Below are positions 9,475 through 38,234 of a stretch of 64,000 nucleotides of DNA, piece by piece; the first letter of the stretch is position 1, and each line of letters begins with the position of its first letter. This DNA is from Phycisphaerae bacterium (lineage in GTDB: Bacteria > Planctomycetota > Phycisphaerae > UBA1845 > Fen-1342). The position numbers and the translations under genes are program-made. Under the pieces are notes generated by a model. The model was given only the letters and a program-made list of their open reading frames with translations. It did no database searches and had not been told where the DNA came from. Where the stretch lies: the NCBI GenBank assembly GCA_050115495.1, contig JASFQK010000006.1, positions 64,001 through 128,000 of the forward strand, read 5' to 3'.

Positions 9475-12400
9475 ATGAGAAGAGGAAGCATACTGCTGCT
9501 GTCCGTGGTTCTTCTGTGTGCGGGGCCGTTCGCGGCGTCCGCCCTGGCTGCGCCGCCCGAGCCTCCGGCCATCTCGCCAGCCGCCGTGCAGCCGGCGACG
9601 AACGCTCCTCCGTCGCTCACCGTCATTTCGGCAGAGACACACGATGCCGAGATGAACTCACGGGAAACGTGTCAGCATAGCGTCGTTCTTGACGAGAGTT
9701 TCTGGTGGCCAGACAGATTTGGTTGGCGCGGCAGCCAGCTCGACCTGTATGTCAATGATACGCTCGTCTTGTCCGGGATGACGTTGCCGACATACACGGA
9801 TGAAGTCGCTTACTACTTCGATGCCTCCGACGGCGACACGATTACCACGGTTTTCCGCGGGAGCGGGGTTCCCTCATTCCAGCGTTACAACCAGTACCGC
9901 ATCTACGATGGAGTGGGTGGTCTGATCGCTCGTGAAGGTGGAGGCTGGACGGGCGCGCCGCCCGAGGGTCTTACCGTAACCGCCAATTGCACGGTAGGTT
10001 CTACCGGTGCTTGTTGCTACGACAACGGCGGTTGCGAGATGGTCGAGAGCGCCGAGGATTGCATCGACGGTCAATTCCTGGGCTTGGGACATACTTGTCT
10101 GGAATGCGAACATATGCTCGAGCGTCCCGCGGACGCCGTATCCGAGGATGAGGACTGCTACGAGGGACTCAACGAAGGTTGCCAGCCTGCAGAAGAAGGC
10201 GGATTCACTCTGCTGAACTGCAATGATACTTTCTATGGCACCTATGGATATGACGGACACGGATTGAGCGATTTTGATTATGATTGGTATAGTGTCGAGA
10301 CCACTGAAACGTCGGTGCTATCGTTGACGATCGAGTCGGAATGGGTCGTGTATTTCGGCATCTACTCCAAGGGACTGGGTGGCGATTGCAGCAATTGGAA
10401 TGTGGCTCCCCACGTCGTTGGTTCGGCGGGTGCCTACGAGCCCGTGACGATCAGTACCGAATGCTTGCCGCCGGGCGAATACCTCATCTACGTATCACTG
10501 TTCTATGAAAGCAGAACCTTTAGCGGGCCATGTCCGATTTATTACGTGGGTACGCTGGAATGTACGCCTGGCTGTGAACCCGCGTTGGGGGCTTGCTGTG
10601 CCGGAGAGTTCCTCGAAAATTGCGTGTCCGACATAACGGAGCCCTGGTGCACGGGCCTTGGTGGGGAATGGCAGGGCGAAGGCAGCAATTGTGACGACAA
10701 TCCCTGCTCGCCACAATACTGTGAAGCATGGGACGATTTCTGCGGCGACGATGAAACCGTATGGGGGCCATATATCTCTCGCGTCCAATTGGGAACGCTG
10801 GACAATTCATCAAGTTGGGAAGATGGCTGTTATTCTGACTACACCGAACCGAATGAGGGCGCGGCGACCGATTTGTTCGTGGGCGAAACACAGGAGATGC
10901 TTGTCACTGACGGCTTACCGTCCGGGCCAAATGCCGACGGCTGGGAGTGCTTCTACGAAGACGTGTGCGCAGTGTGGATTGACTGGAACCAGGACGCGGA
11001 TTTCGATGACGATGGTGAACTGGTGGGATTCGTCTGCGGTGGCGGGCTGTTGCCTTTCAGTATCATGGTTACGCCGCCGGTCGATGCAGTAACGGGCGAG
11101 ACGGGAATGCGTATCCGCTTGTGGTTTACATGGGACGGCGATAACGATAATCCGACACCATGCGGTGGAGCGAATGCCGGCGGCGATGACCTGGCCCAGG
11201 GGGAGGTCGAGGATTACACCGTCAATATTGTGGCCGTGGCCGGCGCGTGCTGTCGGATGGATGATATGCAGGAATGCATCATCGCTACGCCGGCGGAATG
11301 CGAGGCAATTCCCGGTGTCTATCTGGGGCCGTATACGACTTGTTCCGGGAACGATTGCAACGAGAATGGTTATGATGACGCTTGCGACATTGCCGGTTGC
11401 TATGGAACGGCCAGCGAGGACTGCAACCTCAACGGCATACCGGATGAGTGCGAGGAACTCATCGACTGCAACAACAACGGCGTAATGGATGAGTGCGACA
11501 TTATCGCCGGCACGTCGGCGGACTGCGACGGCAACGGCATACCGGACGAGTGCGATATCGCCGATTGTCCCGCCGGCGATCTGTCGTGTGCGGACTGCAA
11601 CCTGAATGGCGTTCTCGACGGCTGCGAGGTCGCTGCGAAGGACAGGGGCCACGCTTACCAGCATGACGACGGCGAAGCCGAGCTGAACGTCGGCCTCGGC
11701 GCCGGGGACACCGTGGCCTGGTTGAACCACTTCACCGTCGACGCCAACGCGACGCGGATCCGCTACGTGCACCTTGCCTATGCCTCGGTCGCGGAAGGCA
11801 CGCCCGTCACCGTGTATCTCTGGAATGACCCGGACCAGGACGGTTATCCGGGCGACGCTCAGGTGATCGCATCCGCGCACACTGTCGTGACCAACCCCGG
11901 CACCAATACGTTCGACGTGGTCGCCATTCCTTACACGGACATCGGCCCGGCCGGAACGCACTTCTTCGTCGGAGCGGTCCTGACGCAGGCGGCGGACGAG
12001 CACCCGGTACCGGTCGACCACACCGCCTCCGCCGGTCAGAGTTGGATCGCCGGTGGCACGGTGTTCGATCCCAACTTCCTGGAGCGAGCCCAGTTACCGG
12101 TTTCCCGGCTCGACGACCTCGGCTACCCGGGCAACTGCCTGATCCGCGCCGAAGCGCAGGGCGGCGACTGCAATGGCAACGGCATTCCCGACGACTGCGA
12201 CATCATGGACGGCACCAGCAGGGACTGCAACGGCGACATGATCCCGGACGAGTGTCAGCTCGATGGCAATGACTGCAACGGCAACGGCCTTCTCGACGAA
12301 TGCGACATCCTCTCGGGTTACAGCGAAGACTGCAACGAGAACGGCCAGCCGGACGAATGTGACGTCAGCGATGGCACCAGCGAGGACTGCCAGCCGGATG

Positions 12401-13350
12401 GTATCCCCGACGAATGCCAACTCTGGACTGACGGTCGCAATGCCGGACTCGCCGGTACGGAAACGCTGGCCTGGGATGACGGGTCCGCCGAGACCGCGCT
12501 CGGTCTTACCACGGGCGGCGAGATGGTGTGGGTTCAGGAGTTCATTGCCGAAGAACCGGCTACCGTCCAGGCTGTGCAAACGTGCTTCGGCGCGGCGTTC
12601 AATCCGGGTGGCTCGGGCGTTTCGGCCGGCGATTCCTTCCGCGTGTTCATCTGGAGTGATCCGAACCAGGACAGCTACCCCTTCGACGCGGTGCTCCTGG
12701 CTGAGGCGACCGGTACCGTCGATGCGGCCAGCATAGACACCGACGTTCTCCAGACCTTGCCCATTTCGGCCCAGGTCGACGGTCGCTTCTTCGTGGGGGC
12801 TTCCGTGGTCCACGCCGCCGGCATGCACCCGGCGCCCGTGGACAGAGACGACCCGCACGGACACGCCTGGGTGACGTCCAACGAACTCCCGTACAATCCC
12901 AATTACTGGACGGACCAGACGTACACTCTGGAGGGCGTTGGCCGGCCCGGCAATCTGCTGTTGCGGGTGGAGATCGAATACGACACACCGTCAAACGACT
13001 GCAACCTCAACGGTATTCCGGATGAGTGTGATCTGTGTGGCGACCTCGATCTGGACGGTGACGTGGACTATGACGACTACGTGATCTTCCTGAGCACCTT
13101 CGGCGGTGAGACCGATGGAACACCGCCGCAGGATTGGTGCTGTGACTATGACCACAGCGGCGCCGTCGGTATGGCCGACTACGCAGCGTGGCTGGATTGC
13201 TATCGCGCGTATATCGGCAAACTGGAAGCCCCGCCGCCGGCCGGTCCGCTCGCGCCGCCCCCCGACTTGCTCCGGCGGAAGGCGGAAGGCCTGGTCACGC
13301 AGCAGTCGCCGACCAATGCCCCCGTGCCGAGCGAGACGCCGGCTCCGTGA
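9475..13350 (+). CDS. Large secreted acidic, Cys-rich protein: GEVED domain, GACC repeats, DCNxNG Ca-binding-type repeats, two copies of a ~160-aa domain, C-terminal dockerin-like domain
   Basis: RBS AGGAGG; signal peptide; VWIDWNQDADFDDDGE...QGEVEDYTVNI; many DCNxNGxPDxC repeats; GDLDLDGDVDYDDY...CDYDHSGAVGMADY. Confidence 0.88.
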   Translation: MRRGSILLLSVVLLCAGPFAASALAAPPEPPAISPAAVQPATNAPPSLTVISAETHDAEMNSRETCQHSVVLDESFWWPDRFGWRGSQLDLYVNDTLVLSGMTLPTYTDEVAYYFDASDGDTITTVFRGSGVPSFQRYNQYRIYDGVGGLIAREGGGWTGAPPEGLTVTANCTVGSTGACCYDNGGCEMVESAEDCIDGQFLGLGHTCLECEHMLERPADAVSEDEDCYEGLNEGCQPAEEGGFTLLNCNDTFYGTYGYDGHGLSDFDYDWYSVETTETSVLSLTIESEWVVYFGIYSKGLGGDCSNWNVAPHVVGSAGAYEPVTISTECLPPGEYLIYVSLFYESRTFSGPCPIYYVGTLECTPGCEPALGACCAGEFLENCVSDITEPWCTGLGGEWQGEGSNCDDNPCSPQYCEAWDDFCGDDETVWGPYISRVQLGTLDNSSSWEDGCYSDYTEPNEGAATDLFVGETQEMLVTDGLPSGPNADGWECFYEDVCAVWIDWNQDADFDDDGELVGFVCGGGLLPFSIMVTPPVDAVTGETGMRIRLWFTWDGDNDNPTPCGGANAGGDDLAQGEVEDYTVNIVAVAGACCRMDDMQECIIATPAECEAIPGVYLGPYTTCSGNDCNENGYDDACDIAGCYGTASEDCNLNGIPDECEELIDCNNNGVMDECDIIAGTSADCDGNGIPDECDIADCPAGDLSCADCNLNGVLDGCEVAAKDRGHAYQHDDGEAELNVGLGAGDTVAWLNHFTVDANATRIRYVHLAYASVAEGTPVTVYLWNDPDQDGYPGDAQVIASAHTVVTNPGTNTFDVVAIPYTDIGPAGTHFFVGAVLTQAADEHPVPVDHTASAGQSWIAGGTVFDPNFLERAQLPVSRLDDLGYPGNCLIRAEAQGGDCNGNGIPDDCDIMDGTSRDCNGDMIPDECQLDGNDCNGNGLLDECDILSGYSEDCNENGQPDECDVSDGTSEDCQPDGIPDECQLWTDGRNAGLAGTETLAWDDGSAETALGLTTGGEMVWVQEFIAEEPATVQAVQTCFGAAFNPGGSGVSAGDSFRVFIWSDPNQDSYPFDAVLLAEATGTVDAASIDTDVLQTLPISAQVDGRFFVGASVVHAAGMHPAPVDRDDPHGHAWVTSNELPYNPNYWTDQTYTLEGVGRPGNLLLRVEIEYDTPSNDCNLNGIPDECDLCGDLDLDGDVDYDDYVIFLSTFGGETDGTPPQDWCCDYDHSGAVGMADYAAWLDCYRAYIGKLEAPPPAGPLAPPPDLLRRKAEGLVTQQSPTNAPVPSETPAP

Positions 13351-26002: not shown

Positions 26003-26608
26003 TCAGCGCATCGGGTAGCGGAACACACCGTCGCGGACGGCCGTGGTCATCTTCGCCGACTGGATCCGGTCGCGCGTGCCCGCCGCCTCCCACTGCTCGA
26101 CACCACCGAGCGTGTTGAAGTAGAAGAAGCGCAGCGTCCACGTCTGGCCATCCTCGGCGACGACCAGCTCCGGATCCTCGCAGTTCTTGGCGAAGGCGGC
26201 GCGCTCCGCCGGCGTGTCGCGCTTCAGCCACGACGGCAGGTAGGGCGTGTGCTTGTCCAGGAACGCCTGACAGCCGACATAGCCCCGCGGCTCGACGGTC
26301 AGCTTGCGGATCGCCTCGGCCAGCTCCGTCGCCGACACGCACATCGGCAGCGGCCCCGCCTGCTCCAACAGCAGCAGCGAGAGCGCGCGGAACTCGTCCC
26401 CGCCATTCAGCCGCCGGGGCTCGGCACCGGAAATGACCCAGAACAGCGCCGGTCGAAAATCGACCGTCCGCGCCCAGATGATCTCCCCAAACTTGATCCA
26501 GGGGAACGCGCTCTCGATCCCCGCAAAGATGAGCTCTTCCGCGGGCAGGCCCAGCGCCTGGGCGGCCTGCTCGGTCACCAGCTTCGTGCTGTCCACCTGG
26601 TCGGGCAT
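26003..26608 (-). CDS. Hypothetical protein, candidate immunity protein for the PAAR-peptidase
   Basis: 201-aa ORF directly downstream of the PAAR effector; last gene of the vgrG run. The role is inferred from position only. Confidence 0.6.
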   Translation of the reverse strand: MPDQVDSTKLVTEQAAQALGLPAEELIFAGIESAFPWIKFGEIIWARTVDFRPALFWVISGAEPRRLNGGDEFRALSLLLLEQAGPLPMCVSATELAEAIRKLTVEPRGYVGCQAFLDKHTPYLPSWLKRDTPAERAAFAKNCEDPELVVAEDGQTWTLRFFYFNTLGGVEQWEAAGTRDRIQSAKMTTAVRDGVFRYPMR

Positions 26609-26696
26609 GTCGTCTTCCCGCCGGCACCGCCGGCTGACTCAGGGAGCGGCGTCACCGCTGCTCAGGAAACGGAATCCTCTCTGCGCCGCACCGCGA

Positions 26697-28019
26697 TCAT
26701 TCCGGGAACGAGATCATCACCGGGTTGGCCCCGGCCGCGGCCACGCGGTTGTTCCATTCAGCGGAGTTCGTATTGATTTCGCGGCAGCCACCGCGGCCCG
26801 GTATGCCCGGATCGCGAAGCAGCACCGACTGTGAGCCGTCCCGGTTGTCGCGCACGCCGTCGGCAATCACCCAGTGCCCTGGATTGCCCAGGCCGATCAT
26901 GGCCGACCGGCCGCCGCTGGTGGCGTTGCGGATGTCCTCCACGCTCGGATTGTACTGCAACCCGTTGTTGGCCACGCCGTGATCGTTAAGCATCGTCACC
27001 ACGTCGCCATCGTTCGTACCGTTGACCGGGTCGTAGCCGGGCGGATGGCCGCGCGCCGCTGACTCGTTACGCAGCGTCTCTTCACTCACCTCGGTACCCG
27101 TTCGGTCGCGGATGATCATGCTGGTGGTCGCCTGGGCACAGGACATGCCCCGTTCCTGCTGTCGCAGCACGTGGCCGTGGCAGCGCCCCCGGAAGTAGCG
27201 ATAGGCGGCGTAGACCGCCCCCGCCACGAGGCCCGCACCAATGATGGCGAGCCCCACACCGAAGCCACGCCCGTCCTGCTCACCAGCAGCGCCGGCTGCG
27301 GCCCCCTGACTGGCGGCAGCGCCTGCGGCGCCACCACCGGCACCGCCCCCTCCTCCACCGCCCCCGCCGCCGGAGTCGCCGATGTCCACCGTCGCACAAC
27401 CCATCGTAATCGGGTCGGCCCCGCCGCAGGCTTCCATGACCTTGTCGCCCTGCCGTGCAGCCGGCAGCTTGTTGATGAAGACGGAGCTGCTGCCCTGCGT
27501 AACCATGCCGGGTCCGTGCGGCGGAATGGGCACCGGGACCGGGCAGACGTGCATGTCGGCGAGGGCGCCAATGGCGGTCATGGTGGCGATGGCCGCCGTC
27601 GCCGCGACCGCCTTGATCCCCTCGGTATAGGCGTTGTTGGCAGCCGGCTGGCCCCCGGGAACCGCCGATGCGGAAGTCCAGGCGGTGGTCAGCGCAGTGT
27701 TGGTGGAGTTGATCACGGTTGCCTGAGCACTGGCCATGTCGGCTGCCGTCGGTACTCCGGCCGCCGCCGCCACCACCCCGCCCATAACCAGACACGCCGA
27801 GATCTGGGCGACATTCACCGCCGCATTCGCCGGCGTCATCACCGGCGTCTTCATGAACGAGTCCATCGAGTTCGTAATGCCCTCGACCGCGGTCCCCACC
27901 GACGACGGTAGCGCCCGCCAGGCCGGCATGAAGCCGATCGTCACGTCCAGGCTGCCCGGACCAGGATTCAGCGGTGTACCATGACTCGTCGGGTCCGTGA
28001 CACGAGCTGCGAAAGGCAT
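26697..28019 (-). CDS. PAAR-domain protein with TM segment and C-terminal C39-like (papain-fold) peptidase
   Basis: FAARVTDPTSHG...PAWR...GSSSVFINKLPAARQGD; Gly linker; GLAIIGAGLVAGAVYAAY; QQERGMSC, GHWVIADG, LRDPG triad pattern. Confidence 0.85.
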   Translation of the reverse strand: MPFAARVTDPTSHGTPLNPGPGSLDVTIGFMPAWRALPSSVGTAVEGITNSMDSFMKTPVMTPANAAVNVAQISACLVMGGVVAAAAGVPTAADMASAQATVINSTNTALTTAWTSASAVPGGQPAANNAYTEGIKAVAATAAIATMTAIGALADMHVCPVPVPIPPHGPGMVTQGSSSVFINKLPAARQGDKVMEACGGADPITMGCATVDIGDSGGGGGGGGGGAGGGAAGAAASQGAAAGAAGEQDGRGFGVGLAIIGAGLVAGAVYAAYRYFRGRCHGHVLRQQERGMSCAQATTSMIIRDRTGTEVSEETLRNESAARGHPPGYDPVNGTNDGDVVTMLNDHGVANNGLQYNPSVEDIRNATSGGRSAMIGLGNPGHWVIADGVRDNRDGSQSVLLRDPGIPGRGGCREINTNSAEWNNRVAAAGANPVMISFPE

Positions 28020-28061
28020 GACGGTAACACTCCTCGGCGGGCGAGCCACCCGCCAGCGATA

Positions 28062-28973
28062 TCAGGGTCCAGCCGTCGGCGCCGGGGTCGGAGCCGGCGT
28101 CGGGGTCGTCGGCGCTGCCGCCGGCAGAATGTACTGATGCCGCGTCTGGTAGATCCTCTGGGCCATCAGGTCGATGTTCCGCTGGGTATGCGTGTCGTTC
28201 CAGCCCAGGTTGCCCCGTGCCAAACCGCCGCCGCCACTGCTATGCAGATCCCAGCCTTCACCCTGAAACGGATCGATCTTGTCGTGCATCGCCTCATGAT
28301 AGGCCATGCCCGCCAGCCCGAACCCGTAACGCGTCCGCAGCAACTCGCTGCGGTTCGCGGCCTGATCGATTGACGGCATCGCTCTCAGCATGATATCCGT
28401 GAAGACCTCGCTCACCGAGGTCCCGTTGTTGACCGGCGGCGTGTTGTCCGTATCGGCTACGCAAAGACCGCCCTCGCTCGGCGTAGACCGGCTGGTGATG
28501 TGGACTCGCCGGAGTTCCTGATAGATCTGGCGCAGGTCACCCGTGGTCTGCCGGGCTCGCTCCTGGAGGTAGCGATTGACCACGCCGCGGCTGCTGGGCG
28601 TGGTGCCGCCCCGCGTCGTGTACCAGTCCGAGAAGTAAATGACGATGTCGCGTGTCCCCACCGGCTCGCTCGAGATATCCAGTGTCCAGATCACCTGGAT
28701 CGCGTTGGGCTGACCGGGCCGCGCCGCCACCAGGTCGAAAATGCTCTGCAAGCGGGTCTGGATGCCCTCGGCCATGCCGTTGGCGTCGTTGCAGTCCGGG
28801 GACAGCGGGTCCACCGCCTGGAGCCAGACCTTCAGGGCGTGGGTGTTCAGCGTGGCTCGCGTCGTACCGGGAGCCGTGCAGCGGGCCGGTTGCGCCGGCT
28901 GCGGGACAGGTACCGCCGGGCCGCCACCCGTGCCGCCGCCCCCACCCGCTCCCGGTGAACCGTTCCAACTCAT
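28062..28973 (-). CDS. Putative zinc metallopeptidase-like effector
   Basis: LAGMAYHEAMHDKID (HExxH, nt 28284-28298); Gly/Pro-rich termini. Confidence 0.6.
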   Translation of the reverse strand: MSWNGSPGAGGGGGTGGGPAVPVPQPAQPARCTAPGTTRATLNTHALKVWLQAVDPLSPDCNDANGMAEGIQTRLQSIFDLVAARPGQPNAIQVIWTLDISSEPVGTRDIVIYFSDWYTTRGGTTPSSRGVVNRYLQERARQTTGDLRQIYQELRRVHITSRSTPSEGGLCVADTDNTPPVNNGTSVSEVFTDIMLRAMPSIDQAANRSELLRTRYGFGLAGMAYHEAMHDKIDPFQGEGWDLHSSGGGGLARGNLGWNDTHTQRNIDLMAQRIYQTRHQYILPAAAPTTPTPAPTPAPTAGP

Positions 28974-29015
28974 CCGCACTGCGCTCCCGCGCGCCGCCGG
29001 GCGGCGCGCTCAACG

Positions 29016-29825
29016 TCAACTCCCGTGCACGTCACGCAGACGATCCCGCGTCTGCTGGTCCGCCTCGCCGGTCTGGTCCAGATTCTCGCGCTGCTGAAAC
29101 TCGCGCAGCGCCGCCCGCGTCCGCTCACCCAGCACACCATCCACGCGCCCCACGTCGAAACCCAAATGCGCCAGCCGGGCCTGGATCCCGCCAGCGCTGT
29201 CGACCGGATCGAGCTGCCCCAGCTCCAGTTCGTACACCTCCCGGTCTGACGCGTCGCTCCGCCCAACCGATAACCGGACCTGCCGGGCGTTGCCGGGAAT
29301 GGGCTCATCCAGCTTGCCGTCGGCGTCGGTCGTGCCCTCGCGACGCTGCCCGTCGAATTCCAGCACGTACGGCTGGTTGGCCCGCGCTTCGTCGTTGCGC
29401 ATCAGCCGCAGCCGCAGCATCGACGGCTCGCCCCGCCGAACGAAACGGTGCCGCATCTCCGACTCGCCGCTCTCCTGCTTCGGCTCCAGCTCCGGCACCT
29501 CAACCTGGTCACCGGGCAGCAGCACGTTTGGATTCTGCCGCGTTTCCTTCAGCTCGGCGTTGGCCGCGTGATCCCAGATCCGCTGCCAGAAATGCCCCGT
29601 ATCCCTGGCGATGCTCGATATGCACTCACCCTGGCGAACCACGCGCTCACCCTGACCGACCGGCTCGGCCGCAGCCGGCGCCTGCTGGCTCTCGCTTTGC
29701 GGCGCCGTCGTCCCGCTGCCGCCAGCAGACGGCTCCGAGCTGGTCCGGGCCTGCTCCAGCCGCCGGCTGAACTCATCGCCGCCCGCAGGGGCCGCTCCGG
29801 ATGGACTGGAATTCGGCGGAGTCAC
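29016..29825 (-). CDS. LysM-like + transthyretin-like + peptidoglycan-binding-domain protein (paralog 3)
   Basis: VVRQGECISSIA...NPNVLLPGDQVEVP; ANQPYVLEFDG...GTTDADG; IQARLAHLGFDVGRVDGVLGERTRAALREFQ. Confidence 0.85.
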   Translation of the reverse strand: MTPPNSSPSGAAPAGGDEFSRRLEQARTSSEPSAGGSGTTAPQSESQQAPAAAEPVGQGERVVRQGECISSIARDTGHFWQRIWDHAANAELKETRQNPNVLLPGDQVEVPELEPKQESGESEMRHRFVRRGEPSMLRLRLMRNDEARANQPYVLEFDGQRREGTTDADGKLDEPIPGNARQVRLSVGRSDASDREVYELELGQLDPVDSAGGIQARLAHLGFDVGRVDGVLGERTRAALREFQQRENLDQTGEADQQTRDRLRDVHGS

Positions 29826-29894
29826 TTGCTGTCCTCTCCGACAAAGCCGGCTGCCGCAGACGTTCGCAGACAGACGTACGTATTACTCAGCATT

Positions 29895-31670
29895 CTACGC
29901 CAACAAGTCTCGATAGCTCTGGGACGGATCCGAGCCGCCGGGCGTCGGATGCACCGGAGGATGCTGCACCTTCTCCCGGGCAGCCTGAATCAGCGCCTGG
30001 ACGCCGGCCTTGGTCATGAACTTGCCACTGGCCTCGTTCATGGTTGGCAGCGGAACGGCCCGCTCGGCATAAAGGTCGCTCCAACTGCTGACGACCAGGC
30101 CGCCGTCCTTGTCAAACACCACGAGCGGTTTCATGTTCCGCGTCGCGCTCGTGGCGTTGGTGATGGCGTCGTCCGTCGTAGTGTACAGCCTGTCGAGGTC
30201 ATCCGGAAACACGTCGTCGGTGGGACCGACCTGCTCAAAGTGAAAGCGCTGCACGCCGAAGACGCTGTATTCCAGCCGGCTGTTGACGTAGCGCCAGCGG
30301 CCCAGGGGGCCGGTGGCTTCGAACGTGTACAACTGGCCCGAAGTCGTGTTCGCTGCCGACTCCTCGACGTACGCCGCACCGTCGAGGGGGTTATAACCCG
30401 TTAGATAACCCTGCCGGGGCATCTGCTCCGAGTTCATCAGCTTGGCCGCCGGGAAGAGCCGAACGATGGCCTCCTCGTGAGAGGCGCGGGACAGGACCGT
30501 GACGTCCGCACCGGCGACGACAGCCCGCGGATCGGCCGGCGCCGCCGGACCGCCGCGGACGCCGTAGCGTTTGACGAAGTGGCTGTGCAGGTCGTTCTGC
30601 CGCCCGTCGACGACGGTGGCGACGCCGTTGGCTCCGTACGGACTGCGGACCTCGAACAGGTAGTGCGTCAGGAAGATCGTGCTGGGGCTGCATGCCCAGG
30701 CCGACGTCAGCATGTGGCTGTCTTGCAGCCGATTCAGGCTGCGCGGCCCCGGAATGTTCTGAGCATGGCCCAACCCCCACGGCCAGTCCTCCGCACTGGG
30801 CAGCGGGTCGGGCAGCTCCGCCGGCGGCGGACCGGCCGTCGTGCCACAGCCCCATCCGTTCGTGCAGATCGCCCAGACGTCGTCGTCACCAGCCCGCTGC
30901 CGCAAATGCCGCGCCATGGGGTTGGCGAATGACCCACCGTAGATCATGCTCCGCGACGCAATCGCGGTCCCGTCCGGACTGGACGAGAAACCCACGCCGA
31001 GCGGCGCGCCGGTCGAGTAGTAGATCCCCACGGCCAGATCCAGCAGAAGCTGGAACTTCATCCCCATCAGGTTGTCGTGCAACTGGTGGTCGCTGGACGG
31101 CGCCCGCCCCGCCTCCTCGAGCGACGTCCCCAGCAGATAGCTGCCCTCACCGTTGAAGTTCAGGTCGGCCAGATCCTCGCGCCCGCAGAGCCGCAGGAAC
31201 TTGAACAGCGGAAACTCGAGCACGTCCCCGGCCACGAAATCGGTCTGCCCCTCCGGATCGACCACTTCCTTGCGCTCATTCAGATTGATCGGCCGGCGCG
31301 CCGTCTGCGACGCTTGGAGCACGCGGAGCGGTCCCTTCCACAACCGCACGTAGTAGAAACCGCTGGCGGCATCGACCGTGTCGTGAATGGGATTCTCGTC
31401 GGTCGACGTGTATGTGATACGAGCCTCGAGGGCGACCGGATGCTCCTCGTCGTAGTCGAACACGGTGGGCCACTGCCCCAGGCGGTGCAGCTCCTCGTCG
31501 TACAGCACGTCTTCCACGTTGTACCACGCGATCATCTTCTGCTTGTACGGCTCGTGACCCAGGCACTGCCGCCAGGCGTCCATCGCCACCCGGTAGTTAA
31601 CCTGGCTGGTCACCACCGCCCGCCGGCAGGGGACGATCCAGTTCAGGTGCTGTTCCCAGGGTTGCGGCAT
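29895..31670 (-). CDS. Hypothetical 591-aa protein, putative effector
   Basis: RBS AGGAG; follows paralog 2; possible C/H/E triad (AWACSP, SHEE, YTFEATG); family not recognised. Confidence 0.65.
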   Translation of the reverse strand: MPQPWEQHLNWIVPCRRAVVTSQVNYRVAMDAWRQCLGHEPYKQKMIAWYNVEDVLYDEELHRLGQWPTVFDYDEEHPVALEARITYTSTDENPIHDTVDAASGFYYVRLWKGPLRVLQASQTARRPINLNERKEVVDPEGQTDFVAGDVLEFPLFKFLRLCGREDLADLNFNGEGSYLLGTSLEEAGRAPSSDHQLHDNLMGMKFQLLLDLAVGIYYSTGAPLGVGFSSSPDGTAIASRSMIYGGSFANPMARHLRQRAGDDDVWAICTNGWGCGTTAGPPPAELPDPLPSAEDWPWGLGHAQNIPGPRSLNRLQDSHMLTSAWACSPSTIFLTHYLFEVRSPYGANGVATVVDGRQNDLHSHFVKRYGVRGGPAAPADPRAVVAGADVTVLSRASHEEAIVRLFPAAKLMNSEQMPRQGYLTGYNPLDGAAYVEESAANTTSGQLYTFEATGPLGRWRYVNSRLEYSVFGVQRFHFEQVGPTDDVFPDDLDRLYTTTDDAITNATSATRNMKPLVVFDKDGGLVVSSWSDLYAERAVPLPTMNEASGKFMTKAGVQALIQAAREKVQHPPVHPTPGGSDPSQSYRDLLA

Positions 31671-31681
31671 CGTCGCTTCTC

Positions 31682-32476
31682 CTAGCGCCCGTACGCATCG
31701 CGCAAGCGATTACGCGTTGCCTCGTCCGGCTCGCCCGTCTGCTCGATCTCCTCGCGAGCCTGAAACGCCGTGATCGCTCGGCGCGTCCGAGGCCCCAAAT
31801 CACCATCCGCCGGCCCGCAGTCGAACCCCAGATTGCTCAGCCGCTGCTGCACGCCCTGCACCGCGCTGAGCGGATCGAGATGCCGGAAGCCGAGCCGGTA
31901 CGTGCGCTGGTTGTTCCCCTCACCCACGCGCACGCGAGCCTCACGAACCCGCGGCGACACCGGGAACTCCAGCTTGCCCTCCGCGTCCGTCGTGCCGCTG
32001 CGCTCCGCCTGCCCGTCGATCTCGGCCGTCCACGGCTCATTCGCCCGCGGTTCACCATTCTCCAGCACGCGCAGCCGGAAGTTCGTCGGCTCACCCCGCC
32101 GGACGAAGCGATGCCGCATCTCCGACTCACCGCTCTCCTGCTTGGGCCGAATCTCGGGAACGGTGACCCGGTCGCCCGGCAGGAGCACGTTGGGATCCTC
32201 GCGAGCCTCTCTCAGCTCCGCGTTGGCCCCCTCGTTCCAGATCGTCTCCCAGAAATGCCCCGTCTCGTTGGCAATGCTCGATATGCACTCACCCTCACGA
32301 ACCACGCGGTTACCCTGGCCGACCGGCTCGGCCGCGGCCGGCGCCCGTTGACTCTCGGCCTGCTGCGCCGTCGTTCCGCTGTTGCCGGCGGACATCCGCG
32401 TGCGCAGTCGCTCCGAGAAATCGTCGCCTCCCCCAGCAGAAACCGGCGTATCCGAACTCTGCGGCGCGTCGCTCAT
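31682..32476 (-). CDS. LysM-like + transthyretin-like + peptidoglycan-binding-domain protein (paralog 2)
   Basis: VVREGECISSIA...DPNVLLPGDRVTVP; ANEPWTAEIDG...GTTDAEG; VQQRLSNLGFDCGPADGDLGPRTRRAITAFQ. Confidence 0.85.
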   Translation of the reverse strand: MSDAPQSSDTPVSAGGGDDFSERLRTRMSAGNSGTTAQQAESQRAPAAAEPVGQGNRVVREGECISSIANETGHFWETIWNEGANAELREAREDPNVLLPGDRVTVPEIRPKQESGESEMRHRFVRRGEPTNFRLRVLENGEPRANEPWTAEIDGQAERSGTTDAEGKLEFPVSPRVREARVRVGEGNNQRTYRLGFRHLDPLSAVQGVQQRLSNLGFDCGPADGDLGPRTRRAITAFQAREEIEQTGEPDEATRNRLRDAYGR

Positions 32477-33165
32477 TGCAGCTTCACCGTAAGCTCGGCG
32501 ATCCCCACCACGTTCTGTCGATTCGACATCATGACCCCGAACGTATCCTCACGTTTGTCCGTCGGCGCGTAATAGACGAGTAGCAGCTTGGGCTTGTCCT
32601 GAATGATCACATGCTCGACCAACCCGGCGACCAACAGCCCTGGCGGCTCGGCCCCGCTGACCTCGACGTCCACCTCGACGCGCTGGCCGGGAGAGATGCT
32701 GTCCGGCCAGTCACACTTGGACAGCTTTGGGGGCTGAACGACTGCCCCGCGGCGCACGCCGGTGCCCGGTCCGGTCAGGATGTCGTCGAGCCAGCGGGCC
32801 CAGCTCAGCAGCTCATCCAGCGGCGGGTCACCGCTCAAGCTGATCACGACATTGTCGCGGCGGAATAGCAGCGTGCCCATCTCCGGCGGCTCGACGCGCC
32901 ATACGCACAGGTCGTCGCCGATCGAATGTTCCTCCGGCGAGCCTCCAATCGTGACGCCGTCGACATGACGATCAAAGAGCTCCTCTGCGCAGGCAACGTC
33001 CTTGACGACGCTCAGTTCCAGGCATACCTCACGCTCATCGGCGAGCCGGATCGTGTAAACGTTCCCAGAGCAATTCAGGTCACGTTCGCAGATGTGAGCA
33101 TCTGGGTGGCGCAGGCGCAAGGCCGTCGGCAGGTCCACGCCGGTCACAAGGTCGTTCGAGGCCAT
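32473..33165 (-). CDS. Hypothetical protein, candidate immunity protein for the transglutaminase-like effector
   Basis: RBS AAGGAGG; acidic; directly downstream of the basic 33239..34678 gene; ATGA overlap with paralog 2. Confidence 0.62.
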   Translation of the reverse strand: MASNDLVTGVDLPTALRLRHPDAHICERDLNCSGNVYTIRLADEREVCLELSVVKDVACAEELFDRHVDGVTIGGSPEEHSIGDDLCVWRVEPPEMGTLLFRRDNVVISLSGDPPLDELLSWARWLDDILTGPGTGVRRGAVVQPPKLSKCDWPDSISPGQRVEVDVEVSGAEPPGLLVAGLVEHVIIQDKPKLLLVYYAPTDKREDTFGVMMSNRQNVVGIAELTVKLQ

Positions 33166-33238
33166 CAATGCTGCCTCCTTGTCCCGAAGCAGCCCGGCCC
33201 CGCGGTCAGCAGCAGACCGGGCAACGCCGCCAACGGCT

Positions 33239-34678
33239 TCAGTGCGGGCATGACCAAGTCAGCTCCATGGTGTCGCTCCCGTAGAGCCAGTCATTCCTCC
33301 CTCCAAATTGCGCGCTGGCGCTCGGAGCGTGGCAGGTAATGGTTCGGCTGCTCACTTTGCCGTACGTAGGGTCATACGTCGTCCCTCCATACTTCGTCAT
33401 CGCGTGGAACTTGAAGTGCGGGTCCTTCTGCGCAGCTCCGTTCTTCGGCGCAGTGACCTGAAACGTGCAGCCATATTTGAGGATGTGCGGCTTAGTGATC
33501 GTGACTCCGAGATTGACCCATTTCTTCCGTTTGGTACGCGTAAGGTAGAATGCGCAATTCGTTGGCCCCGTGCCGCCCCACATGTACACTAGAGACGAAA
33601 CCAACCCGACGCTGCGGCACAAGTAGTGCATTAGCTTGGCATAATCCGTGCATTGGCACTTCTTTTTGCCATAGGTTGACAACACCTTGGACAGTTTCAG
33701 GTCGGCGCCGGGGACGTAGCGCGGCGTCTGCTTGTCGGCCCGCAATCCCTTGTTGATGAAGCCGGCCACGTCGGTCTGGCCGTTCACGTAGCCGCAGGCT
33801 TTCTCCAGAGCCTTCGTGTACAGCGGATTCTCGAGCGGCGTGTCGGCGACCTGGTAGATCTTGTGCGGTCCGGTCGTGAACATCCGGTACCACGTCTTCT
33901 TGTCGTGCGAGTAGGACCAGCGCAGCACGACCTCGCTGATCAGCACCCGGTCGGACAGACGGCCCTTCACGAGCGTGATGTCGTTCACGTCGAAGCTGGG
34001 AGTCGTCACAGTGACGTTGTCCTTCTCGAAGATCAGCGGCGCCGAAAGCCCCCTGAGCTTCTTCGGGTTGCCCCGTTTCGGTCGCGTCAGCCCGACCGCC
34101 CGCAGCGTGATCGGCTTGTCCGTCTCCCCGGAGACCACTTTCACCTTGACCTGGAGCTTGAGCCCGTTCGAGTTCTTCTTGTAGCAGACGGGCAGGTTTC
34201 GTTTCGGAGCGCTCTTCCACACCGGCCCCGTGATCAGCGACTTGCCGATCCACCTGGTCAATTCGCAATCGTCGTGAAACGACAGCTCGATCACCTTGAG
34301 CTTCATCGGCCCAGCGCTGACCGTGGCCCGTTTCTTGCTCGTCGGCGGCTTCCGCGGCACGCGGCTCACCGACGGCTTGGCGGTAGCCGAGGGCAGGAAG
34401 ATCACGCCGGGGGAGTCGGTCGCCGCCATCGGGTGATTGTAACCCTTCTTGGTCACCGGATGGCAGCCAACGAAATAATGCAGATACCACGCCACCTCGG
34501 CCAAATTGATCGTGCCCCAGTTGAAGCGCGCCAATTGCAGCCACGTCCAGCCAACCGTCTTGGCCAGCGACACCAGCGTCTCGCCGTCGTTGACCTGGTG
34601 CGCCGTGAACGCCGCGCGCGAGAGGGCGCCGTGCGGTAGACCGCAGGGGCAGATCGTCTTGGGCTCCTTCTCAACCAT
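33239..34678 (-). CDS. Lys-rich protein with N-terminal LysM-like and C-terminal transglutaminase-like domain; putative effector
   Basis: HQVNDGETLVSLAKTVGWTWLQLARFN; CQCTDYAKLMHYLCRSVG...FHAMTKYGGTTYDPTYG (C-H-D). Confidence 0.72.
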   Translation of the reverse strand: MVEKEPKTICPCGLPHGALSRAAFTAHQVNDGETLVSLAKTVGWTWLQLARFNWGTINLAEVAWYLHYFVGCHPVTKKGYNHPMAATDSPGVIFLPSATAKPSVSRVPRKPPTSKKRATVSAGPMKLKVIELSFHDDCELTRWIGKSLITGPVWKSAPKRNLPVCYKKNSNGLKLQVKVKVVSGETDKPITLRAVGLTRPKRGNPKKLRGLSAPLIFEKDNVTVTTPSFDVNDITLVKGRLSDRVLISEVVLRWSYSHDKKTWYRMFTTGPHKIYQVADTPLENPLYTKALEKACGYVNGQTDVAGFINKGLRADKQTPRYVPGADLKLSKVLSTYGKKKCQCTDYAKLMHYLCRSVGLVSSLVYMWGGTGPTNCAFYLTRTKRKKWVNLGVTITKPHILKYGCTFQVTAPKNGAAQKDPHFKFHAMTKYGGTTYDPTYGKVSSRTITCHAPSASAQFGGRNDWLYGSDTMELTWSCPH

Positions 34679-34714
34679 CGTACGCGCACCTCTCCGCAAT
34701 CACCGTCGGCGGGC

Positions 34715-35494
34715 TCACGAACCGTGCACCTCCAACAGCTTGTCCCGCGTTGCCTCGTCGGGTCGGCCGGTTACCTCCAACTGCTGCGCCTCCTGAAAGG
34801 CAGCCAGGGCGGCCCGCGTCTTCGGACCGAGCATGCCGTCCACCGCGCCGCAGGCGAACCCGAGATTGTTCAACCGCCCCTGCACGCCCGACACCTCGGC
34901 AATCGGCTCGAGCTCGCCCAGGGCCAACGCATACTCATCCTCCTCCTCGCCCACGAACAGCCGCCCGTGCCGCGCGTCGCCGGGGATCGGGTGTTCGAGC
35001 TTGCCCTCGGCGTCGGTCGTCCCCTGGTACGTGCGGCCGGCCACTTCGAGACGATAGGGCTCATTGGCCCGCGGCTGCCCGCCCTCGACGACCTGGATGG
35101 CCACGGCTTGCGGCTCGCCCCGGCGCACGAAACGGTGCCGCATCTCGCTCGCCCCGGACTCCGTCTTCGGCTCGATTTCGCGGATGGACACCCGGTCGCC
35201 GGGCAAGAGAATGTTCTGGTCCCCGCGCGCGCTGCGCAACTCTTCGTTGTTGGGGTCGTTCCAGATCGTCTCCCAGAACAGGCCGTGTTCCTTGGCGATC
35301 GACGCGATGCAGTCGCCGCGGCGCACGATGTGGTCGCCCTGGCCGACGGGGCCGCGTGACTCTGTGTCGACCTCAGCCTCCTGGGCAGCCTGAGCGGCTG
35401 CGGCCGTTAGTGCAGCCTCTTCCGTCTGGCGAGCCCGGGCCTGCGCTTCGACCAACCGTCTGCTGAACTCATCGGCAGCGTCTATAGGGCTCAT
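34715..35494 (-). CDS. LysM-like + transthyretin-like + peptidoglycan-binding-domain protein (paralog 1)
   Basis: True start ATG 35494 after AGGAG; HIVRRGDCIASIA...DQNILLPGDRVSI; ANEPYRLEVAG...GTTDAEG; VQGRLNNLGFACGAVDGMLGPKTRAALAAFQ. Confidence 0.85.
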   Translation of the reverse strand: MSPIDAADEFSRRLVEAQARARQTEEAALTAAAAQAAQEAEVDTESRGPVGQGDHIVRRGDCIASIAKEHGLFWETIWNDPNNEELRSARGDQNILLPGDRVSIREIEPKTESGASEMRHRFVRRGEPQAVAIQVVEGGQPRANEPYRLEVAGRTYQGTTDAEGKLEHPIPGDARHGRLFVGEEEDEYALALGELEPIAEVSGVQGRLNNLGFACGAVDGMLGPKTRAALAAFQEAQQLEVTGRPDEATRDKLLEVHGS

Positions 35495-35540
35495 CGACGT
35501 TTCTCCTGGCGACCCGTCCGCCGGTTGCCAGACAGGTTCG

Positions 35541-37991
35541 CTACTCGTGGTCATCCGCGTCGCCGGAATCACTCGCGGAAGCATCGGGACCGCCGGCAGT
35601 CTGCTCGTCGCCATCGCCGTCCGATGCGCTGGGCTGTGAAGAGGCTTGGCCTTGGTCGTCGCTGTCCGCAGAGCGTTCGTCGACCGCGCCGGCAGCGGCG
35701 CTGGCCGCCGACTGCCCGCCGGCCCGCTCCCACGCCTCGGCATCGAGCCGCGGGAAGCTGATCTGGCACGTGCCCGGCTCGGGCAGACCCACGTGGGCCT
35801 GACCGTTCCGGTCCAACGAACCGCGCCGCACCTCGCCATCCGGACGCGTGATCTCGTAACGCTCGCCCGCCACCGGCTGCCCCGCCTCGTCCACCAGTTC
35901 GATCTCGATCCACGACGTCTGCTGCTCTTCCTCCTCCGCCTCCGCCGGCGCGGCCTCCATCTGCTCGAGCTCCAGCGCCTCCGGCGGCGCGGCTTCCGCC
36001 TGGTACGTCGTATCGTGTCCGGGCACCGCGCCATCCGCGTCCACGGTCGCCTCCGGCGCCGTCAGCGATGCCGCCGAGCCACTGCCCCCCGATCCGCCAC
36101 TGTTGATCTTCACCTGCGCACCGAGGATGGTGACGCCGCTCGCGTCAATCTTGACGAAGTTACCGCCCGCCTTGAGCGTCAACCCGGCACCGGCCTCGAT
36201 AACGATGTTCGCCCCCGCCTTCAGGTAGATGTCACTTGCCGTGTTCTCGCTGTGCTTGCCGCCGATCTCCACAGCGACGTCACCCACGACCTCCAGCGAC
36301 TGGTTGCCACCGATCTTCTCGTTGAAATCGAGCGCAACCTCGCTGTGCTTCTTCTGCTTGACCAGCTCGAACTTCTGTTCCTTGACGGTCAGGTAGTGGT
36401 TATGCCCAACGTTCTCGACACGGTCGCTGTTGACGCGCACGTGCAGATCCTTCTGCGCATACAGCAGGATCTGCTCGCTGCCCACCTTGTCCTCGAACCG
36501 CAGCTCGTTCGTCCCGTCGCCGCCCTTCGAGCTGTTCGTCTTGATGCAGCTCTTCGTCTTTTCATCCGGAAGCGTGTACGGCGGCATCTGGTCGTTGTTG
36601 TAGACCCGCCCCGTGACGATCGGCCGGTCCGGATCGCCCTCCAGGAAATCGACGATCACCTCCTGCCCCACCCGCGGCAGGAACATGATGCCATACTGCC
36701 CACCCGCCAACCCCTGGCTCACCCGCACCCAGAACGAACTGTTCTCGTCGTACACGCCCTCCTGGTCCCAGTGGAACTGCACCTTCACCCGGCCGTACTC
36801 GTCGGTGTAGATCTCTTCGCCCGACGGCCCCACCACGATCGCCGTCTGGCTGCCGCGCACCGTGGGTCGCGGCGTTGTCCGCGGCGCTCGGTAGGGCACG
36901 TCCGACGGAATCGCCGTAATCTCGACCTCGTACCGCAGACCCTGCTCGCCGGCCTCCTCCGCCGCGCTCTGCGGCTGCGTCGCACGGTGCGTCAGGCCGG
37001 TCACCAGGTACTCGCGGTTCAGCGCCTCACTCGGATGCTCGATCAACGTGAACTTGTACCCGGACAGCAACCCCCGCGCCGTCGCGCTCATGTACTGCGT
37101 GTGCCGCGCCGCCTGAAACTCCTGCAGCCGCAGTTGCACGTAGTGCTCGCCGACCGTGCGATCTACGTAGTTGCCGGGGTAATCCACATAATCCAGTGAC
37201 GAGAACACATCCGCCGCCAGGTTCGCCCGCAACTGCGTCTTCGGCTGCTGGAAGTTGAAGGCGTCCAACGTCACCGCCCCCGTCCGAATCTCCTCCCGGT
37301 CCCGCAACCGGTAGACCGCCTCGTGTTCCTGGTCCGGCACCAGACCCTGCGGCGGCCGGAACGGATACTCCGCCTCGTTCGGCGTAGCCACGTGCGCCAC
37401 GTCACTGTCGGCGATCACCATCTTGTGACCGTCGGTGGTGTGCTCGAAGAAGTAGAAGATCCCCTCGTGCTCCATCAGCCGCGAGATGAACGCCAGCTCC
37501 GACTCGCGGTACTGCACCACCATCTCACGCGCCGCGTACGTCTCTTGGAGAGCAAACCGATAGCTGTCCTCCGGGATACCGGCGTCGGCGAACACCTTCC
37601 GGATGATCCCCGGCACCGACATGTCCGAGCAGTTCGTCTCCAGGAACAGCCGGGAGCGGTACCGGTTCGCTAACAACCAGTGAACAGGCACGACTTCCGC
37701 CGCATAGTACGTCAGGCTCGAACCCTCCCCCGTCCGCTCGAACCCTCGCACAATACCGCTCACACACCGCAGCCCGCTGGGCCCGGAGATCTCCAGCAGG
37801 GCCGGCTTGCCGACCACGTCGGCCAGCGCGATGTTCGCCTCGTCCGAGCAGAGCGACACCCGAAAGTGAAACAGCTCGCTCAGACCCTCGCGACCCTCGA
37901 ACGCGGTGACCTTCAGGACGTCGGGCGTTAGCTCACCCGCCCGAAAGGTGAAATCCGCTGTATGCCCCGGGCGGGCGGGAGATGCCGCCAT
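35541..37991 (-). CDS. vgrG: Type VI secretion spike protein VgrG with C-terminal transthyretin-like extension and acidic tail
   Basis: FEGREGLSELF, VQYRESELAFISRLMEHEGIFYFFEH, EEIYTDEYGRVKVQFHWD, FLPRVGQEVIVDFLEGDPDRPIVTGRVYN, NELRFEDK; RBS GGAGGTG before ATG 37991. Confidence 0.97.
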   Translation of the reverse strand: MAASPARPGHTADFTFRAGELTPDVLKVTAFEGREGLSELFHFRVSLCSDEANIALADVVGKPALLEISGPSGLRCVSGIVRGFERTGEGSSLTYYAAEVVPVHWLLANRYRSRLFLETNCSDMSVPGIIRKVFADAGIPEDSYRFALQETYAAREMVVQYRESELAFISRLMEHEGIFYFFEHTTDGHKMVIADSDVAHVATPNEAEYPFRPPQGLVPDQEHEAVYRLRDREEIRTGAVTLDAFNFQQPKTQLRANLAADVFSSLDYVDYPGNYVDRTVGEHYVQLRLQEFQAARHTQYMSATARGLLSGYKFTLIEHPSEALNREYLVTGLTHRATQPQSAAEEAGEQGLRYEVEITAIPSDVPYRAPRTTPRPTVRGSQTAIVVGPSGEEIYTDEYGRVKVQFHWDQEGVYDENSSFWVRVSQGLAGGQYGIMFLPRVGQEVIVDFLEGDPDRPIVTGRVYNNDQMPPYTLPDEKTKSCIKTNSSKGGDGTNELRFEDKVGSEQILLYAQKDLHVRVNSDRVENVGHNHYLTVKEQKFELVKQKKHSEVALDFNEKIGGNQSLEVVGDVAVEIGGKHSENTASDIYLKAGANIVIEAGAGLTLKAGGNFVKIDASGVTILGAQVKINSGGSGGSGSAASLTAPEATVDADGAVPGHDTTYQAEAAPPEALELEQMEAAPAEAEEEEQQTSWIEIELVDEAGQPVAGERYEITRPDGEVRRGSLDRNGQAHVGLPEPGTCQISFPRLDAEAWERAGGQSAASAAAGAVDERSADSDDQGQASSQPSASDGDGDEQTAGGPDASASDSGDADDHE

Positions 37992-38060
37992 GTCGTTCAC
38001 CTCCGATTTCGTCCTGCGCAATGAGACCTGATGCCGGCAAAAAATGAAGAGACACTGCCC

Positions 38061-38113
38061 GGCGAAAGGTAGGAGCCCGTACAAGTTGTATGCCTTTCGC
38101 CCGATAGTGTCAA
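38061..38113 (-). promoter_or_regulatory. Candidate vgrG promoter overlapped by inverted repeats
   Basis: TTGACA (38113-38108), N17, TACAAC; IR GGCGAAAGG (38061-38069)/CCTTTCGCC (38093-38101); TACAA-G-TTGTA (38080-38090). Confidence 0.45.
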
Positions 38114-38234
38114 TGATTTGTACCTGCCCCGACCGCTCATCAAAGCAGGGTATAGACACCTCGCGACGCGCGCTTCCGCGAGTCCCCCCCCCGACCGTCG
38201 AGCGCGGACCCCCACCCCTCTTCCAGGCAGCTCC

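Follow-up and report, generated by a model that had tools for sequence, protein, structure and literature searches.

Three LysM-like accessory genes, each placed before a different cargo gene, in a VgrG-PAAR island of a Phycisphaerae bacterium: candidate secreted tethers of the type VI spike

Introduction

To our knowledge, the way in which a type VI secretion system (T6SS) spike recognises very different effectors is only partly understood, and nearly all work on this question comes from Proteobacteria. Here we describe a ten-gene T6SS island in DNA from a Phycisphaerae bacterium, analysed as a stretch of 64,000 nucleotides (nt; positions 64,001 to 128,000 of contig JASFQK010000006.1, assembly GCA_050115495.1; this whole stretch is called the window below). 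The island runs from a vgrG gene to a gene for a PAAR protein and its neighbour, and in between it holds three paralogous accessory genes, each directly followed by a gene for an unrelated putative cargo.

The closest described proteins are those of Wang et al. 2023 (Commun Biol, PMC10673891), who scanned 130,825 vgrG loci and, according to the text of the paper available to us, found LysM and PG_binding_1 among six domain families of such loci, either as stand-alone proteins or as fusions. In their co-immunoprecipitation (co-IP) experiments in E. coli an effector bound its VgrG only together with a stand-alone LysM protein, and a LysM-NlpC/P60 effector required its own LysM domain for VgrG binding. 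The reviewers remarked on the absence of secretion data, as is seen in the accessible part of the peer-review file. In that text PG_binding_1 is reported in vgrG loci only of gamma-proteobacterial families, and the word Planctomycetes does not occur. The established adaptors are described, in the available portions of PMC10673891 and PMC11582642, as remaining in the producer. Myxococcus xanthus TsxE (MXAN_5572) is an effector with LysM and amidohydrolase-2 parts that is encoded downstream of vgrG2 (PMC5801462, in the text available). When we looked for literature on the present family in Planctomycetes or as a T6SS accessory we found only PMC10673891, the large supplementary tables of which may list such loci and were outside this search; the term LysM is absent from the accessible text of the DUF4123 paper (PMC11582642) and of a review from 2026 on T6SS accessory factors (PMC13584744).

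In our analysis the locus is well accounted for as an effector island of this genome's T6SS, made up of VgrG, three accessory-plus-cargo cassettes and a PAAR-tipped toxin. The paralogs behave like the LysM-type accessory proteins that have already been proposed, and what is new is the tri-domain architecture of the family, its fusions to PAAR and Hcp, its range across phyla and the repeated cassettes. An initial annotation of the window had called the paralogs an undescribed class of adaptor or co-effector. This was overstated, since LysM and PG_binding_1 proteins of vgrG loci, and the idea of a LysM bridge, are already found in the available text of PMC10673891. We consider it rather probable that the paralogs are secreted tethers (a 'co-effector' or secreted adaptor) that ride on the expelled spike and hold the cargo encoded downstream.

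Results

The ten minus-strand genes listed in the initial annotation, with vgrG, three paralogs and a PAAR gene among them, were all recovered, tightly packed at 26003..37991 with gaps of −4 to 88 nt. The vgrG gene (35541..37991, minus strand like the rest of the island) encodes a T6SS spike protein of 816 amino acids (aa) and has a Shine-Dalgarno-like GGAGGTG 5' of its ATG at 37991. VgrG scored 587.9 bits on the T6SS-specific model TIGR03361 (cut-off 186.35), and the Pfam scores for Phage_GPD (264.8 bits), Gp5_trimer_C (95 bits) and Phage_base_V (58.8 bits) were all above their cut-offs, so that by its sequence this is a genuine T6SS VgrG (TssI). The protein ends in a beta-domain (aa 693-754, 35730..35915, minus strand), our proposed docking domain, and an acidic tail.

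The first paralog follows vgrG (259 aa, 34715..35494), the second (264 aa, 31682..32476) and third (269 aa, GTG start, 29016..29825) lie further into the island, and each is separated from its own downstream gene by 11-36 nt. The proteins are 50-61% identical to each other (1 vs 2 54%, 1 vs 3 50%, 2 vs 3 61%) and are also visible in the DNA as a 300-nt repeat family of 61-76% identity; paralog 1 scored 385 bits on the family profile. In Pfam scans a C-terminal PG_binding_1 domain (PF01471, cut-off 23) was found in paralogs 1, 2 and 3 with 55.8, 52.7 and 57 bits, respectively, and no family was found beyond it, which leaves two thirds of the length without a model. We assigned the remaining domains from VIA-align rows together with Pfam, on an AF2 model of paralog 2 that was made with a 22-sequence alignment (pLDDT 81.6). 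In this model the N-terminus is disordered apart from one helix (19-30) bearing a conserved DEFSxRL motif, which is kept in all three window paralogs. Next come a compact strand-helices-strand domain at 56-108 (the strands and helices themselves at 57-104), a nearly invariant linker of the RHRFxRRG type (EMRHRFVRRGEP, at 117-128) with low model confidence, a beta-sandwich at 127-200 and a three-helix domain at 204-263, the PG_binding_1 domain. The order in the paralogs is thus LysM-like part, RHRF linker, transthyretin-like (TTR-like) sandwich and PG_binding_1.

Structural comparison was clearest at the C-terminus, where the three-helix domain matched the PG_binding_1 folds of CtpB (Z 11.0) and SleB (Z 10.5) with root-mean-square deviations (rmsd) of 1.2-1.4. 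The sandwich gave Z 8.1 to macroglobulin-type and TTR-type sandwiches, a middling value that may reflect a common arrangement only, and aligned over 56 residues with the TTR domain of VgrG from enteroaggregative E. coli (EAEC; 6sjl_A residues 778-834, Z 6.8, rmsd 2.4). Transthyretins also appeared in the Foldseek list for this model at E of about 0.03-0.08; Foldseek with the models of paralog 2 and of cargo 3 (see below) gave nothing at E<=0.001. The best structural match of residues 56-108 was a phiCD508 phage needle chain (Z 6.5, rmsd 1.6, 51 residues). With Pfam LysM (PF01476) at E<=1, 11 of 22 family members matched, the best at 1.1e-9 and three via an extra canonical LysM, and the family profile met the MltD LysM structure 1e0g at E 0.099. 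Taken together, the AF2 model, the fold matches and Pfam support the description in the initial annotation of ~260-aa paralogs with LysM-like, beta-sandwich and peptidoglycan-binding domains. Its remark that DUF4123, DUF1795 and DUF2169 are not recognisable in the paralogs was confirmed as well: the three adaptor families were undetected in the three paralogs at E<=0.01 and in 22 family members at E<=1 (16 families listed). Neither a signal peptide nor a transmembrane segment was seen in the paralogs, and a strongly hydrophobic window occurred in one of 99 family copies.

Relatives of the paralogs are numerous. A word-based search gave 475 homologues of near length, with source names mostly from Phycisphaerae or Planctomycetota, and in an exhaustive profile search the cluster representatives numbered 9,887 at E<=1e-10 and 3,332 at E<=1e-30, including some PG_binding_1 repeat proteins. 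A locus scan with one genome per species and 10-kb flanks led to 259 confirmed loci. The 71 that were retained came from Planctomycetota, Acidobacteriota, Hydrogenedentales, Thermodesulfobacteriota and single metagenome-assembled genomes of Nitrospira and Gammaproteobacteria. These 71 loci held 95 full-length copies, and the downstream genes were called by our own open reading frame (ORF) heuristic. Of the 77 copies for which 3 kb or more of upstream sequence was present, 53 had a vgrG gene upstream on the same strand. The association with vgrG that is to be expected from the initial annotation was borne out: vgrG was found within 1 kb upstream of 36 of 60 arrays, and 23 of the 60 (~38%), mostly non-planctomycete, had no upstream vgrG and lay beside housekeeping genes. 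Fifteen arrays were multi-copy, 13 with two and 2 with three copies, and one of these loci (L022) consists of vgrG and three cassettes in the same pattern as the window. The idea that a maximum of three cassettes is a sign of the VgrG trimer was dropped, as flanks of 10 kb cannot show longer arrays.

The gene downstream of the accessory was hypervariable, as the cassette model of the initial annotation implies, with 94 directly downstream proteins (the three of the window and one from contig C10 included) falling into 54 BLASTP clusters. A Pfam match was obtained for 28 of 82 scanned downstream proteins and none for the other 54. Metallophos (8) and Amidohydro_2 (5) were among the families, and single cases were PLD, arginine deiminase (PAD), M23 with Tlde1, polysaccharide deacetylase, Exo_endo_phos and Het-C. 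The others included five small proteins with PG_binding_1 only, one with a LysM match only, and two that were fused to Hcp. In the latter two loci (L036 10930-12819 and L057 10736-12625) the Hcp-fused gene comes after the family member, one with a weak Peptidase_C39_2 match, and the accessory can therefore precede an Hcp-borne toxin. An N-terminal stretch of ~180 residues is common to some cargo clusters only (e.g. L017 with cluster 0); an N-terminal loading domain common to the cargos was rejected, as the window cargos lack this stretch.

We also asked how the family is distributed relative to the T6SS. In a sample of 151 genomes drawn evenly from the same class, 20 were TssC-positive, and a full-length family match was found in 9 of these 20 vs 0 of 131 TssC-negative genomes. 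One match among the TssC-negative genomes covered only the PG_binding_1 part. Because related genomes are not independent, this co-occurrence is to be read as a pattern and not as a statistic.

The module also occurs in fused form. In 12 clusters residues ~50-264 of the module are joined to the C-terminal side of PAAR, and in 3 clusters to that of Hcp. Of the Hcp fusions, one came from a search of longer proteins and two from the word-based search; Pfam and BLASTP confirmed the domain order. Stand-alone forms dominate, and no fusion of the whole module to VgrG or to a toxin was found in the length ranges searched. One PAAR::module gene (genome G113) lies inside a core T6SS cluster with the order tssA-B-C-hcp-F-G-clpV-vgrG, four genes without family, PAAR::module. 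Another PAAR fusion (P0122) has, after PAAR and before the module, a stretch similar to the end of the VgrG beta-domain, a likeness seen by eye and not scored. The N-terminal ~50 residues are the only part that is replaced in the fusions, and therefore the best candidate for a piece that docks in trans.

The VgrG beta-domain was itself regularly associated with the family. A single phmmer pass placed it on the C-terminal side of the core in 37 of 41 near-full vgrG ORFs, and in the remaining four it was encoded by a separate ORF of 133-154 aa between vgrG and the family gene, so that in each of the 41 contexts a beta-domain comes ahead of the first family copy. A protein of contig C55 (see below), in which such a domain and a LysM-like segment share one chain, is a further tie between beta-domain and module. 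An iterated profile of this domain reached the sandwich of the paralogs (66 family ORFs), which suggests that the two beta-domains are related.

To see whether accessory proteins track their cargo, identities were compared for 106 pairs with the same cargo in other loci, 30 pairs with different cargos in the same locus, and a background of different cargos in other loci. Identity in the LysM-like part was 0.63 for the same cargo, 0.56 for the same locus and 0.53 for background; the corresponding values were 0.58, 0.41 and 0.40 for the linker, 0.51, 0.39 and 0.38 for the sandwich, and 0.53, 0.42 and 0.41 for PG_binding_1. The nearest accessory from another locus shared the cargo cluster in 36 of 53 cases vs 2.3 expected by chance. 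As far as sequence comparison goes, this grouping fits inheritance as cassettes rather than local duplication.

The three cargos of the window showed no detectable similarity to each other in the clustering. Cargo 1 (486 aa, 33239..34699, alternative start ATG at 34678) is a putative transglutaminase/papain-like effector: its Transglut_core match was below threshold (E 9.6e-4, 19.8 bits vs cut-off 23), and its structural neighbours in the ESM Atlas include transglutaminase clusters at low TM (0.22-0.29). Its N-terminus carries a weak LysM-like stretch (LysM E 0.0078), and a PDB sequence search gave nothing at E<=1. Cargo 2 (591 aa, 29895..31670) is without recognisable family, with no match in Pfam, NCBIfam or PDB beyond chance-level or low-complexity ones, and was a singleton in the survey clustering. 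An identity as viral capsid protein was dropped as noise, the ESM Atlas feature matches being below 0.85 and the structural rows at TM<0.3. Cargo 3 (305 aa, 28062..28979) carries the motif HEAMHxKxDP, with H228, E229, H232 and D236 invariant in 10 homologues. No Pfam match was found, and a PDB sequence search gave chance-level or low-complexity matches only. Its AF2 model (pTM 0.75) was closest in fold to archaemetzincins (Z 8.4, with rmsd 3.3-3.6 over 138-146 residues); ADAMs, MMPs and snapalysin came next (Z 5.2-6.6). The motif and the model together point to a putative zinc metallopeptidase of metzincin-like type (HExxH), and homologues of cargo 3 sit after family copies in two surveyed loci (L015 and L021).

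The PAAR gene (26697..28049) encodes a 450-aa protein with a PAAR_motif (PF05488, 46.6 bits vs cut-off 27; PDB 4jiw_D, E 4.8e-8), hydrophobic windows at ~76-104, 145-163 and 261-284, a linker rich in Gly and, at the C-terminus, a putative papain-like toxin domain, for which the matches were weak and sub-threshold (C70, E 0.037). The protein reads AARVTDPTSH near the N-terminus, which we take to be similar to the 'prePAAR' motif of PAAR effectors bearing transmembrane domains. This gene was the sole PF05488 match in the genome. The island thus holds the only recognisable PAAR spike tip of the genome and is therefore not a dispensable extra.

Two further genes are candidates for immunity genes. 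Guessing from position alone, we assign the 231-aa gene (32473..33168) to cargo 1 and the 201-aa gene (26003..26608) to the PAAR toxin; neither product has a Pfam or NCBIfam family, signal peptide or membrane segment. The 231-aa gene and the start of paralog 2 overlap by 4 nt. As there is no recognisable Eag/DUF1795 chaperone in the island, the 201-aa gene could also encode a chaperone and not an immunity protein. Cargos 2 and 3 have no immunity-sized gene before the next gene, the gaps being 69 nt (29826-29894) and 12 nt (28050-28061). The survey holds further cassettes of this sort, e.g. a Metallophos cargo in L022 that runs straight into the next family copy.

The host assembly (5.97 Mb, 92% complete), in which the window belongs to contig C6, encodes the core T6SS on other contigs: tssB-tssC-hcp on C1, tssF on C46 (589 bits) and tssK on C2 (227 bits). 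The core is thus scattered over at least three contigs, with the tssB-tssC-hcp unit of C1 among unrelated genes, and there is one hcp in the genome. The TssM domain (IcmF-related N, PF06761) was not found in this 92% complete genome. None of TssC, TssF and TssK, the three core families searched in the genome, maps to the window contig, and the window holds no sheath, tube or baseplate gene, in agreement with the initial annotation, which had seen no core tss genes there.

The genome has two vgrG genes, and the second, on contig C10, likewise has a family member (43% identical) after it, and then genes for a 689-aa protein with a C92-like amidase match and a HEAT-repeat protein. On contig C55 a 326-aa mosaic protein (region L009 6633-8221 and 8245-9591) combines a VgrG-type beta-domain (49% identity over 63 aa to that of VgrG) with a LysM-like/RHRF segment (40% over 86 aa to the LysM-like-plus-RHRF segment). 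Its gene is followed by a DUF4123 adaptor gene (70.7 bits) and then by small ORFs, and as no vgrG is near, the pair may be an orphan adaptor-effector locus.

A 593-aa protein encoded on contig C17 (L002 880-2661, the same as L087 11208-12989) shows weak TssB and TssC matches in one polypeptide (VipA 37.9 and VipB 129 bits), separate from the canonical tssBC. A second, weaker sheath-like match was also present in 9 of the 151 genomes of the class sample, 8 of which carry the LysM-TTR-PG_binding family as well; in G113 the second sheath-like gene lies two genes after the PAAR::module gene of the core cluster.

Upstream of vgrG lies an intergenic region of 243 nt (37992..38234), in which a stretch read directly off the sequence, TTGACA-17 nt-TACAAC on the minus strand, is a possible promoter. 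A consensus scan for promoters and terminators gave nothing above shuffled expectation and did not call this stretch. The island is flanked by genes that we term housekeeping: an ABC transporter, a phosphoglycerate-mutase-like gene, isoleucyl-tRNA synthetase (IleRS) and a MatE transporter. Elsewhere in the window, the only stretch of lower G+C (0.58-0.64 vs about 0.67-0.70) contains an ORF of 1291 aa with a GEVED domain (61.6 bits), at 9475-13350 on the plus strand.

Discussion

We favour secreted tethers because the paralogs have no signal peptide and yet carry two domains of peptidoglycan-binding type, and because the family is confined to T6SS genomes in the sample, adjoins vgrG and occurs in covalent form on PAAR and Hcp, both of which are expelled. 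The accessory would dock on the spike, most likely at VgrG's C-terminal TTR-like beta-domain, and its N-terminal ~50 residues with the DEFSxRL motif may serve as the docking piece in trans, most plausibly onto that same beta-domain. By analogy with the complex of the VgrG TTR domain and Tle1, the cargo might be held by the RHRF linker and the sandwich. In this way the accessory would hold the protein encoded just downstream and exit the cell with the spike, and its two peptidoglycan-binding domains would act only after reaching a periplasm. We infer from this that the accessory binds both VgrG and cargo, and that it is itself secreted and could bind peptidoglycan in the target. Possibly, the three cassettes load one trimeric spike together.

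A wider version of this picture is put forward tentatively and is, in our view, rather doubtful as a whole. The paralogs might belong to a large cross-phylum family of secreted tethers that either insert in trans into VgrG at its TTR-like C-terminus or are covalently joined to PAAR or Hcp, with arrays that bring up to three enzymes and a PAAR toxin into one shot and a payload that is pinned to the peptidoglycan of the victim.

Several observations weigh against the secreted-tether reading. The LysM-like and TTR-like fold matches are middling (Z 6.5 and 6.8-8.1) and possibly reflect a common arrangement only, and paralog 2 has no Pfam LysM match at E<=1. The arrays without upstream vgrG, beside housekeeping genes, fit poorly, and the downstream genes of the survey rest on our own ORF heuristic. 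Kinship among the genomes inflates the statistics of accessory-cargo covariation, in which no specificity domain stands out, all four parts being 0.10-0.17 more identical in same-cargo pairs. The window paralogs themselves are without a clear cargo-matched neighbour, the same-cargo partner of paralog 3 ranking 4th with 58% identity. Finally, signal peptides are absent from the candidate immunity proteins and two cargos are without an immunity gene, and a purely wall-directed payload is therefore doubtful. A complex prediction for paralog 3 with the HExxH cargo, with alignments for both, scored 0.00 vs a mark of 0.32, which speaks neither for nor against binding.

The alternative that survives best, unlikely as we consider it, is that the paralogs are cytoplasmic adaptors or chaperones of the DUF4123/Tap-1 or Eag type, which load an effector onto VgrG and stay in the producer. 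They occupy the same slot as the known adaptors, between vgrG and a variable effector gene, and on contig C55 a LysM-like protein is encoded directly before a DUF4123 gene, so both helpers can work side by side. An adaptor that stays behind is, however, hard to reconcile with a module that in 12 clusters is covalently fused to PAAR and in 3 to Hcp, both of them expelled, or with two peptidoglycan-binding-type domains that would be without substrate in the cytoplasm, and no signal of DUF4123, DUF1795 or DUF2169 was seen in the paralogs.

Next comes the idea that the paralogs are independent secreted peptidoglycan-binding factors, for instance for the spike to cross or hold the target wall, and do not bind the downstream proteins, which would be loaded in some other way; this too we regard as improbable. 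Among the recognisable parts PG_binding_1 and the LysM-like domain are conserved best, the module can travel without a separate partner, as its PAAR and Hcp fusions show, and the window paralogs are not clearly paired with cargo type. Against this, a copy lies directly before a variable gene nearly always, arrays have one repeat per cargo, and accessories group by cargo cluster across loci (36 of 53 vs 2.3 expected).

It is very unlikely that the paralogs anchor the T6SS of the producer to its own wall, in the manner of TagL, TagN or TagP, or remodel that wall. Peptidoglycan-binding accessories of such sort are known (PMC13584744, in the text available), but the paralogs are without signal peptide or membrane segment, occur in up to three divergent copies per operon that are each beside a different gene, lie in a vgrG island and not beside membrane-complex genes, and have PAAR- and Hcp-fused relatives. 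A phage-like or extracellular contractile injection system (eCIS) with a LysM core baseplate protein, to which the phiCD508 needle chain as best structural match of the LysM-like domain (Z 6.5) could point, is extremely improbable given a VgrG with 588 bits on a T6SS-specific model, canonical TssB, TssC, Hcp, TssF and TssK in the genome, no sheath, tube or baseplate gene in the window, and a family found only in the TssC-positive genomes of the sample.

By its position the family points to dozens of putative effector families that lack annotation, in Planctomycetota, Acidobacteriota and further phyla that have been little studied. If the idea of a tether is true, the accessory gene is a genomic handle for effector discovery, as one would look immediately downstream of it, and the island is a natural example of modular multi-cargo loading of a spike. 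It would also mean that the adaptor itself is delivered and may act on the target wall, and what Wang et al. 2023 showed in a single co-IP result would be extended to a general mechanism.

Compared with known systems, the accessories share with DUF4123 (Tap-1/Tec), DUF1795 (Eag) and DUF2169 proteins the slot between spike gene and effector and a presumed loading role; they differ in that there is no sequence match to these families and in a module that has wall-binding domains and occurs fused to expelled parts. With the P2 gpX-type LysM baseplate proteins of phages and eCIS they have in common a small LysM-type fold beside a gpD/gp27-gp5-like spike. Unlike these, they are no core part of the machine and are multi-copy, with additional TTR-like and PG_binding_1 domains and a variable cargo. 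The TTR domain of EAEC VgrG1, which binds Tle1 (PDB 6sjl), aligns with the sandwich in the paralog model, and the window VgrG ends in a related beta-domain; in contrast to EAEC VgrG1 the paralog sandwich sits on a separate protein, and its Z lies within the common range of Ig-like and TTR-like folds.

As in TsxE, to go by the available text on that effector, LysM and toxin follow an orphan vgrG, and Amidohydro_2 is also a cargo cluster here (5 of 82). LysM and toxin form one polypeptide in TsxE, which looks like a fused form of this cargo type, whereas the wall-binding module is a separate gene in the present cassettes.

The closest relative in arrangement is Kalk_10460 of Ketobacter alkanivorans, described in PMC10673891, which also lies directly after vgrG and before a variable toxin gene and has been proposed to link effector and VgrG. 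Like the LysM proteins of that study, the window family occurs both stand-alone and fused to T6SS parts. Unlike Kalk_10460, with the two set apart by description only, the window family has a fixed tri-domain build with an invariant RHRF linker, and Pfam LysM misses the window copies. As judged from the accessible text of PMC10673891, the present family further differs in that its module is fused behind PAAR or Hcp and not at the C-terminus of VgrG or the N-terminus of a toxin, in that it forms arrays of 2-3 cassettes, and in that it spans Planctomycetota, Acidobacteriota, Hydrogenedentales and Thermodesulfobacteriota.

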